Positions 31,002 through 31,596 of a DNA stretch of 64,000 bases are shown in pieces. Source of the DNA: a virus (taxonomy: Duplodnaviria; Caudoviricetes); IMG/VR virus record IMGVR_UViG_3300017716_001697, positions 300,577 through 364,576 of that record; one strand, given 5' to 3'. The first letter of the stretch is position 1, and each line of letters begins with the position of its first letter. Under the pieces are notes generated by a model. The model saw only the letters and a list, made by a program, of their open reading frames with translations. It searched no databases and had not been told where the DNA came from. The position numbers and the translations under genes were made by a program.

Positions 31002-31031
31002 TTGACGATCACACATACGATCAGATAAAAT
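31002..31031 (+). promoter_or_regulatory. Sigma70-type promoter facing an ORF-free region
   Basis: TTGACG, 18-nt spacer, TAAAAT, immediately after the endolysin terminator. Confidence 0.65.
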
Positions 31032-31037
31032 AGTGTA

Positions 31038-31595
31038 ACAACAAAAAGTTGTTCATAAACAAAAACATAAATCATAGGTAACAAGGGTGATGCGCCTTGT
31101 TAACAGTAAAGCCAATTGCATATAGATTTTTTAAATCCAATTCTCAACAATTTAATCACAAAAACACTTCATCACATTTTAAGGTTGGCGAGCCGAGTTA
31201 ATATTTCGCAAGACGTGTCGTTCGGAATGGAGCGCAACAGTCAGGTCCGCTGGATGTGCAGTGGCAAACTTCAATGAAAAGAGACGGCTGGCGCCTTGCA
31301 TCTCTTCTAAGTGAAGTGAATTAAAAATTTGTTGCGGGTATGTGAATGAAAGGTATGGCCTGCAAGCGGTGTAGTAATTAGCTGAATAAGAACTACGATA
31401 AACCGCGAGGATGTATGTGGTTTAAATCCACTTGTCCCCCTTACAGGCCGCTTAAATGCGTGGAGTTGACATAATCAATCCAATACTCCAAAAATAGTCT
31501 GTTTCAGTCTCTGGTGATGTAGTCAAGAACATTGCAAGGAAGGGTATACGAACGTCGGTTATTATTTTTTAATCTACGTTCGTATACCCTTTTTC
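31038..31595 (+). ncRNA. Candidate large structured non-coding RNA (about 560 nt), family not recognised
   Basis: No ORF of 60 aa or more; bounded by a promoter and a terminator; at least six stems, including a multi-branch domain closed by GGCCTG/CAGGCC. Confidence 0.55.
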
Positions 31596-31596
31596 T
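31540..31596 (+). terminator. 16-bp perfect hairpin with U-tract closing the ORF-free unit
   Basis: AAGGGTATACGAACGT (31540-55) and ACGTTCGTATACCCTT (31576-91), followed by TTTCT. Confidence 0.75.

Follow-up and report, generated by a model that had tools for sequence, protein, structure and literature searches.

A new class of large structured RNA predicted in a clade of uncultured jumbo phages

Comparative analysis across viral and metagenome contigs establishes, at the level of sequence, a conserved, strand-specific and highly structured RNA gene in a jumbo phage, independent of the genes on either side of it. The predicted RNA represents a new class that matches none of the families searched, and the class is confined to a single clade of jumbo phages, which are uncultured, come from freshwater and wastewater and are distantly related to the Pseudomonas jumbo phage PA5oct. 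The initial annotation of this DNA had proposed a novel large structured noncoding RNA, and this proposal is upheld against coding or junk DNA by plus-strand covariation in about 45 homologues and by the lack of any match in Rfam 15, ARAGORN or GenBank phages.

Locus, homologues and extent of the RNA gene

The window analysed, a stretch of 64,000 nt, is the final 64 kb of a complete jumbo phage record of 364,576 bp with direct terminal repeats. As had been noticed from the sequence, it contains one outstanding ORF-free gap, 30948-31669 (722 nt), the second longest being 441 nt. The longest ORF within this gap encodes 53 aa, or 43 aa with TAG read through, and a coding function was rejected; a 113-aa frame requires TGA as a sense codon, for which the long table-11 ORFs surrounding the region give no occasion. 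Upstream lies a GH108 endolysin gene (30360-30947, +; Pfam), and downstream a convergent ORF of 189 aa without family (ORF189; 31670-32239, -), beyond which a T4-type baseplate protein gene is found. The order endolysin, RNA, convergent ORF189 and baseplate gene is kept by every copy of class A, the class to which the RNA of the window belongs.

The genome as a whole encodes 45 tRNAs and a permuted tmRNA, the latter scoring as betaproteobacterial type, a hint at a betaproteobacterial host; ARAGORN found no tRNA or tmRNA in the window, these genes being located elsewhere in the genome. The SbcC-like protein of this phage shares 54.5% amino acid identity with its PA5oct counterpart.

A search with ORF189 identified five related viral contigs, four of which carry the whole intergenic RNA at 70-77% nucleotide identity, at a protein identity of only 47-59%, and the fifth of which has only the 5' end of the RNA in common. 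The remaining homologues were retrieved by matching a pattern taken from the loop that is most conserved and then filtering with nhmmer, giving about 45 distinct homologues in viral and metagenome contigs. Identity to the window copy is 59-74% for the RNA, compared with 42-67% amino acid identity for the flanking proteins. GenBank phages yielded no match to the region (blastn) or to ORF189 (tblastn), and PA5oct no homologue, either with nhmmer --max or with a covariance model of the domain that classes A and B share; a 15-bit covariance-model match in PA5oct falls inside the portal CDS and was discarded as spurious. Bacterial genomes contain at least 120 matches to a 17-mer of the conserved loop, which were rejected as homologues, being chance matches or lying just upstream of an apparent IS30-type transposase start, with no nhmmer homology among the matches listed.

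The signals at the 5' side of the gene and its extent are as follows.

30955..30985, +: intrinsic terminator of the GH108 endolysin gene (terminator scan; 12-bp stem and T-run)
30993..31000, +: conserved upstream box TCGATATT, consensus ~TCAAKATT (gapless alignment of 34 distinct upstream regions)
31002..31031, +: promoter-like site, TTGACG at 31002-31007, 18-nt spacer and TAAAAT at 31026-31031 (promoter scan)
31037..31611, +: class-A RNA gene, ~575 nt (conservation; nhmmer and alignments, ~45 homologues)

The endolysin terminator sets the RNA gene apart from the endolysin transcription unit. The 5' end of the gene is placed from the -10 hexamer and the 3' end at the end of the conserved direct repeat DR2; the RNA had been taken to stop at 31596, but conserved sequence runs 15 nt further, to 31611. 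Its own promoter had been read as TTGACG-N18-TAAAAT, and both hexamers are present as placed. Among homologues the -10 TAAAAT is nearly invariant, whereas at the -35 position only TT is kept at 18-nt spacing (mean 2.9/6 matches), and the spacer of most homologues contains a variable inverted repeat. The upstream box, located at a fixed distance of ~33-26 nt 5' of the -10 hexamer, is a candidate UP-like or activator site and hints that transcription may depend on an activator. Transcription by the host polymerase is plausible given the nearly invariant -10, though the -35 is weak. One true metatranscriptome provides a 161-nt contig over 31265-31425, with one mismatch and without flank cover, which can be regarded as a weak hint of expression; the RNA data consist of sparse contigs, and three wastewater or aquatic 'RNA-Seq' runs are probably DNA.

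Covariation and architecture of the class-A RNA

Single-sequence folds of the region beat shuffled sequences on both strands (z -3.3 and -4.5), so that folding of one sequence tells little and it is the comparative evidence that counts. A model of 109 pairs, forming 20 helices and three pseudoknots, was refined by mutual information and inspection and scored on an alignment of 37 sequences. Covariation among homologues had been put forward as a check on the RNA, and compensatory double-sided changes are found at 76 of the 109 pairs, with a covariation score (0.416) above those of all column shuffles (0.162 +/- 0.007; 0/500 reach it) and of models in which partners were slid by 1-3 positions (0.06-0.10). 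Canonical pairs fill 91.5% of cells in the model, compared with 78.5% in the 500 shuffles and 35-40% in the slid controls. In addition, RNAalifold, run independently, predicted 74 pairs from 23 sequences, 43 of them compensatory, and 41 pairs, 35 compensatory, in the 3' domain of 38 sequences of all classes. The plus strand is identified as the RNA strand by its invariant or frequent G-U pairs.

The elements of the predicted structure, in 5' to 3' order, are listed here.

31037..31169, +: class-A-specific 5' accessory domain (pair counts)
31037-41/31049-53, +: hairpin H1, 5' accessory domain
31081-85/31096-100, +: hairpin H2, 5' accessory domain
31090-93 with 31118-21, +: pseudoknot PK1, formed by the H2 loop (99% canonical; CG30/TA6 at one pair)
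31133-31143, +: AAAYCCAAWTC motif in the A-rich variable linker, 5' accessory domain
31173..31258, +: pseudoknot PK2, 31173-31176 with the H7 loop 31255-31258 (CG26/TA9, AT30/GC3, CG27/TA7)
31188..31316, +: core domain 1, H4-H9 (pair counts)
31212-14/31240-42, +: H5 (100% canonical)
31219-23/31230-34, +: H6 (100% canonical)
31245, 31247-52/31259-65, +: H7, core domain 1
31269-73/31312-16, +: H8, around the variable hairpin H9 (100% canonical; 5/5 pairs compensatory)
31332-38/31359-65, +: H10, around the invariant internal loop GUAUGUGAAA..AGGGUAUG (100% canonical; 7/7 compensatory)
31366-70/31402-06, +: H11 (99% canonical jointly with H12; 8/10 pairs compensatory)
31371-75/31392-96, +: H12 (scored jointly with H11)
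31382-86 with 31503-07, +: pseudoknot PK3, formed by the H12 loop (CG25/TA10; in one lineage CTGAA/TTCAG becomes GTTATA/TATAAC)
31409-11/31435-37, +: H13 (100% canonical; GC20/CG9, AT19/CG15)
31417-20/31428-31, +: H14, dispensable variable hairpin capping H13 (sequence changes freely; deleted in 4 homologues)
31443..31502, +: three-way junction of H15, H16 and H17 (pair counts)
31443-48/31497-502, +: H15
31449-51/31458-60, +: H16
31462-66/31485-89, +: H17, presenting an 18-nt loop
31467-31484, +: the 18-nt H17 loop UGACAUAAUCAAUCCAAU, fixed sequence
31540..31591, +: H18, a terminator-like 16-bp hairpin with a U-tract behind it (97% canonical; covariation within the subclade)
31584..31592, +: invariant AUACCC-UUU segment, candidate strand of a pseudoknot PK4 (pairs 31349-31356, with C31589 bulged)

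The core of about 430 nt holds some 17 helices and two loop-to-strand pseudoknots. In the window copy H4 has a different register. In H6, G31224 and G31229 switch jointly to A/A and are identical to each other in 100% of sequences (MIp 0.89). The 18-nt loop of H17 is present, with one T/G variant, in 5/5 of the homologues found via ORF189 and in both copies of the phage's own genome, and its invariance over the whole set is inflated, most homologues having been retrieved by that very motif. A scan of the phage genome for a complement to this loop returned as its best result one 12-mer, about what chance gives.

Several stems had already been drawn from the single sequence. Covariation in the 37 homologues bears out the TAACAAGG/CCTTGTTA stem, in which the inner 5 bp covary, as well as the GCGGT/ACCGC, GTAGT/ACTAC and GTGG/CCAC stems and the (T)GGAGT/ACTCC(A) stem. 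For AAGAGA/TCTCTT, the position of the hairpin (H9) is conserved and its pairing sequence is variable. The helix GGCCTGCAAG/CTTACAGGCC, thought to close a multibranch domain, has to be given up: it is canonical in just 59% of cells, and both strands pair better elsewhere, with covariation, 31359-31365 pairing with 31332-31338 and 31443-31448 with 31497-31502.

The 3' region is ordered as direct repeat DR1, H18, the invariant AUACCCUU segment and direct repeat DR2. An own terminator had been assigned to the RNA on account of the perfect 16-bp hairpin at 31540-31555/31576-31591 followed by TTTTT; the element is there, but it is restricted to the window's subclade. The long form of H18 with its U-tract occurs in this subclade only, its letters being found in ~10-12 of 37 class-A sequences, and outside it the 3' hairpin is short or different and mostly lacks a U-tract. 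Every sequence stays conserved through GAUACCCUU..UCUGACUCC..GUCAAG as far as 31611, where conservation ends.

A fourth pseudoknot, PK4, which would dock the 3' tail into an internal loop, is likely, with moderate support from substitutions: the pair 31349/31592 is CG in 25 sequences and AT in 8 (a change between subclades), 31351/31590 is GT in 26 and AT in 11, and L136 changes an A-U pair to G-C, the remaining pairs being invariant. PK4 pairing competes with the 3' strand of H18. A test for kissing of the H17 loop with the H18 region came out no better than shuffles (median P 0.86).

Large RNAs this dense in conserved tertiary structure are rare, and past cases have turned out to be ribozymes, RNP cores and, lately, self-assembling cages. 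So elaborate a structure would be just as typical of a ribozyme or a self-assembling RNA.

Paralogues and the twin direct repeats

The same genome carries a second, shorter and divergent copy, designated class B (G000:C1:~139,000-139,450), immediately behind an NT5C-like gene, with phoH convergent to it. Class B is without the 5' accessory domain and differs in the H5-H6 region, and it retains PK2, H10-H12, PK3, the junction with the same 18-nt loop, the AUACCCUU segment and both direct repeats; its PK2 is the same pairing of loop with 5' flank, made by other sequences. With the covariance model of the shared domain, this genome and a complete 385-kb relative each gave two copies, and a complete 363-kb relative gave one. 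Variants also exist, such as contig L133, a class A/B hybrid at the class-B locus, and contig L005, which at the class-A locus combines class-A 5' hairpins and a DR2-like 3' end with an unrelated core of ~600 nt that has no Rfam match.

That a paralogue exists among unrelated genes speaks for an RNA that is autonomous and acts in trans, and against a cis element. The region could be imagined as a 3' UTR, a bidirectional terminator, an antisense barrier between endolysin and ORF189, or a hidden small-protein gene, and it does lie between convergent genes at both loci, with an H18 that in the window's subclade could terminate transcription on both strands. We consider these readings very improbable, for the paralogues share no neighbouring genes, the endolysin is terminated by a signal of its own upstream of the RNA, and the strand-specific paired structure spans more than 500 nt. 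As for a small protein, the longest ORF has only the 53 codons' worth of coding capacity given above, and the pattern of change is one of compensatory pairing with no conserved reading frame. A mobile element is not apparent either: no nuclease or recombinase gene of such elements was found among the neighbours of either RNA locus, and both loci are fixed and orthologous, unlike those of multicopy mobile-element guide RNAs (IscB/TnpB omega RNA, IS110 bridge RNA).

The 3' region of the RNA carries two short direct repeats.

31510..31527, +: direct repeat DR1 TCTGGTGATGTAGTCAAG (3' core equal to the DR2 core in every lineage)
31594..31611, +: direct repeat DR2 TCTGACTCCGATGTCAAG (end of conservation, beyond the end set by the initial annotation)

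DR1 and DR2 have in common a TCTG start and a 3' core, the latter occurring as GTCAAG, GTCATG, GTTAAG, GGCAAG, GTCGAG, GGTGATG, CCCAAAG or GTCAG depending on lineage. Four core positions are the same in DR1 and DR2 in 40/40 class-A sequences. Over 31 distinct pairs of all classes, five core positions show an identity of 0.92, compared with 0.56 +/- 0.04 for shuffled partners (0/5000). The cores lie 55-85 nt apart and flank a hairpin. Scans for complementarity, mutual information and conserved helices gave no internal complementary partner for them; local mini-hairpins (UGAC/GUCA) and antiparallel DR1-DR2 pairing were also tried, and both fail in variant lineages when the alignment is read. The constraint on the repeats is sequence identity and not complementarity. 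The simplest reading is that DR1 and DR2 are two equivalent sites for one co-evolving, sequence-specific factor or external nucleic acid, and more exotic readings would make them twin processing sites, or take-off and landing sites of a polymerase jump. In the window's subclade a strong terminator stands before DR2, which may thus often be missing from the RNA; an RNA-level role of DR2 is awkward for this reason.

Processing is worth considering at this point. The RNA might be a ribozyme or a processed precursor, whose core cleaves at the DR cores or directs an endoribonuclease of phage or host to them, yielding a mature large RNA and a small hairpin RNA with the invariant GAUACCCUU segment, as in CRISPR and ToxI precursors. 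The two cores are identical and stand on either side of a hairpin, with conservation breaking off right behind the second of them; large ribozymes are typically of this size and this rich in pseudoknots, and they too have invariant nucleotides at their junctions. Against this stand the absence of any known ribozyme family match even at E<=10 and of an internal guide complementary to the DR cores, although such a guide would be unnecessary if a protein reads the sites. The likeness to CRISPR pre-crRNA and ToxI precursors consists in identical short direct units that co-vary, as sites of a co-evolving endoribonuclease do; unlike in those systems, there are only two 18-nt units with an identical core of 5-6 nt, and the stretch between them is no spacer and shows partial conservation. 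Neither a cas nor a toxN-like gene was found near the RNA loci. On balance, we regard such processing as an unlikely explanation.

The same repeats have a place in a different proposal, namely that the RNA is a replication primer or marks an origin in the manner of ColE1 RNA II, with a transcript that stays hybridised near its 3' end and primes DNA synthesis. DR1 RNA could then pair with DR2 template DNA, since DR1 equals DR2 and upstream RNA can anneal to a downstream template; with about 560 nt and a fold that has to be precise, the transcript is reminiscent of RNA II, and two copies per genome could be two origins. ColE1 RNA II, likewise a folded transcript (~550 nt) made from a promoter of its own, adopts a conformation on which the fate of its 3' end depends. 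This RNA differs from it in that no GC-skew origin signal accompanies it, cumulative GC skew rising monotonically with no inflection at 139 kb or 332 kb, and in that no antisense partner like RNA I is seen. Moreover, one complete relative has a single copy, there are no iterons and no AT-rich unwinding element beyond ordinary intergenic AT-richness, and the structure is far more complex, its three or four pseudoknots with isosteric covariation exceeding the known needs of a primer. An origin acting as DNA, for its part, gains no support from GC skew and cannot account for G-U-rich, strand-specific pairing. A role in priming is judged very unlikely.

Known RNA families and possible functions

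Rfam 15 at gathering thresholds gave 0 matches over the whole window. In sensitive mode (E<=10), the region 30900-31700 produced only chance matches to miRNA, snoRNA and sRNA models, far below threshold and falling on the terminator hairpin or the flanks. The expectation that no known family would be matched was accordingly confirmed for GOLLD, ROOL, OLE, HEARO, raiA, group I/II introns, RNase P, tmRNA, 6S and SRP, and a literature search found no description of this RNA. Bacterial RNase P RNA is similar in size and has multiple long-range pseudoknots, and the genome that carries the new RNA is rich in tRNAs (46 tRNA or tmRNA genes); the new RNA differs in giving no RNase P model match at E<=10 and in lacking a closing helix of its 5' and 3' ends. 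The motifs GCAACAG and AUGGCCCGC bear what we take to be a resemblance to RNase P motifs, in a different order and structural context. Resemblances to 16S rRNA and RNase P motifs were set aside as chance, since ~13 shared 8-mers are expected between sequences of 580 nt and 1540 nt, and neither the rRNA models nor those of RNase P gave a match.

PA5oct, which is among the nearest cultured relatives, expresses four putative lncRNAs (ncRNA001-004) of 236-619 nt defined by RNA-seq (PMC7318152), and a sigma-70-like promoter can be read from the sequence of ncRNA004. These RNAs too are long and ORF-free, but no similarity links them to the present one, and theirs is support from RNA-seq where here it comes from covariation.

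The new RNA most resembles the large ornate phage RNAs GOLLD and ROOL, without belonging to either family. All are stand-alone, phage-borne RNAs of several hundred nucleotides with many helices and pseudoknots, found by comparative genomics; the present RNA has no sequence or structure homology to the other two, lies away from tRNA genes, yielded no self-complementary loops and is limited to one jumbo-phage clade. GOLLD and ROOL are phage-associated RNAs reported from cryo-EM to form RNA-only assemblies (PMC12286853). An RNA-only homo-oligomer like those of ROOL, GOLLD or OLE, in which loops and tail would serve as inter-subunit contacts of a cage or lattice, is in keeping with a phage-borne, stand-alone, ornate RNA of several hundred nucleotides with invariant single-stranded segments, and ROOL and GOLLD, RNAs of similar standing, are reported to assemble in this way. 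We nevertheless hold it to be quite unlikely: homology to ROOL, GOLLD or OLE is lacking; no pair of conserved loops was seen to be mutually complementary or palindromic, and the one indirect test, for kissing of the H17 loop with H18, was negative; and the loci are not near tRNA genes, unlike many GOLLD and ROOL loci.

Our preferred reading, to which we give somewhat less than an even chance, is a trans-acting scaffold or decoy RNA that uses its 18-nt loop and its twin 3' motifs to act. The plus strand would be transcribed from the promoter with the nearly invariant -10 TAAAAT, and the folded core would form a rigid scaffold acting in trans during infection. Its 18-nt apical loop and DR1/DR2 may be offered as binding surfaces to a conserved putative partner, either a protein or an RNA of host or phage origin, which would be sequestered or organised by the RNA (as decoy or RNP scaffold). 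Both repeats would be recognised, as twin sites, by a single sequence-specific factor co-evolving with them. In the window's subclade, the competition of H18 with the tail-docking pseudoknot suggests two alternative 3' conformations.

A bolder idea, which we rate as improbable, is a new large ribozyme or RNA machine for which the identical 3' motifs are twin reaction sites, used in self-processing or as take-off and landing points of a programmed polymerase or template jump across H18, with a switch between H18 and PK4. If true, it would represent a new catalytic or recoding-like RNA mechanism in jumbo phages.

Two features of the class are unusual, namely diverged paralogues that have one loop sequence in common, and identity, not complementarity, between two direct repeats. 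With its ~45 sequences, its detailed pairing model and its clear targets for mutation, the class is a well-defined and testable entry point, and the RNA is attractive for cryo-EM. Its carriers are giant phages that also encode about 45 tRNAs and a tmRNA, and the finding bears on how jumbo phages may use RNA, rather than protein, to manipulate infection.

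Promoter spacer and fine structure of the class-A RNA

In most homologues of the class-A RNA, an inverted repeat of variable sequence lies between the upstream box (consensus TCAAKATT) and the -10 element, as in the homologue contigs L059, L070, L026 and L114, and some of these repeats are perfect palindromes of 10-12 bp. Such a repeat could act as an operator or, alternatively, as a 5' hairpin; the spacer of the window itself (31008-31025) carries no clear inverted repeat.

Within the RNA, the two terminal bases of the H6 hexaloop (window positions 31224 and 31229) covary from G..G to A..A in every sequence. 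This covariation is not of the Watson-Crick type and suggests that a specific non-canonical pair closes the H6 loop. Separately, position 31364 is joined directly to position 31463 in one contig from a wastewater run, skipping 98 nt that correspond to the H11-H14 domain. This contig, in which the shorter side of the joint spans just 21 nt, may represent a relative devoid of the domain or a misassembly.

Other RNA genes and gaps of the phage

Rfam searches at gathering thresholds of the first 60,000 nt of the phage genome (G000:C1:1-60000) detected tRNAs and a tmRNA, and RNase P RNA was not found in this region.

G000:C1:30513-30870 (L289:10513-10870): permuted tmRNA of the phage, scored at 145 bits by the Betaproteobacteria tmRNA model
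33705-33780 of the genome: tRNA with anticodon CTA

The score of the tmRNA against this model hints that the host is betaproteobacterial, and the tRNA is a possible amber suppressor. In the window, the second-longest ORF-free gap occupies 37349-37789 (441 nt).

A class-B paralogue and a core variant

Two further RNAs are related to class A, one elsewhere in the same genome and the other in a related phage.

L003:1184-1640 (G000:C1:~138,998-139,454, outside the window): class-B RNA, a second, divergent copy of ~450 nt
L005:4571-5400, minus strand of the locus: variant RNA at the endolysin/ORF189 locus of one related phage

An NT5C/HAD-like gene of 199 aa precedes the class-B RNA, which begins directly after that gene's stop codon, with phoH convergent to the RNA. 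The class-B RNA shares the 18-nt loop sequence of class A and possesses two direct repeats of its own (each TATAT..GTCAG). The L005 variant retains the 5' hairpins of class A and ends, on the 3' side, in a sequence resembling DR2, the second of the class-A direct repeats; its core of ~600 nt is unrelated to the class-A core and likewise has no match in Rfam. L005 thus carries a third core variant, at the endolysin/ORF189 locus, which suggests that cores are exchanged in a cassette-like manner.
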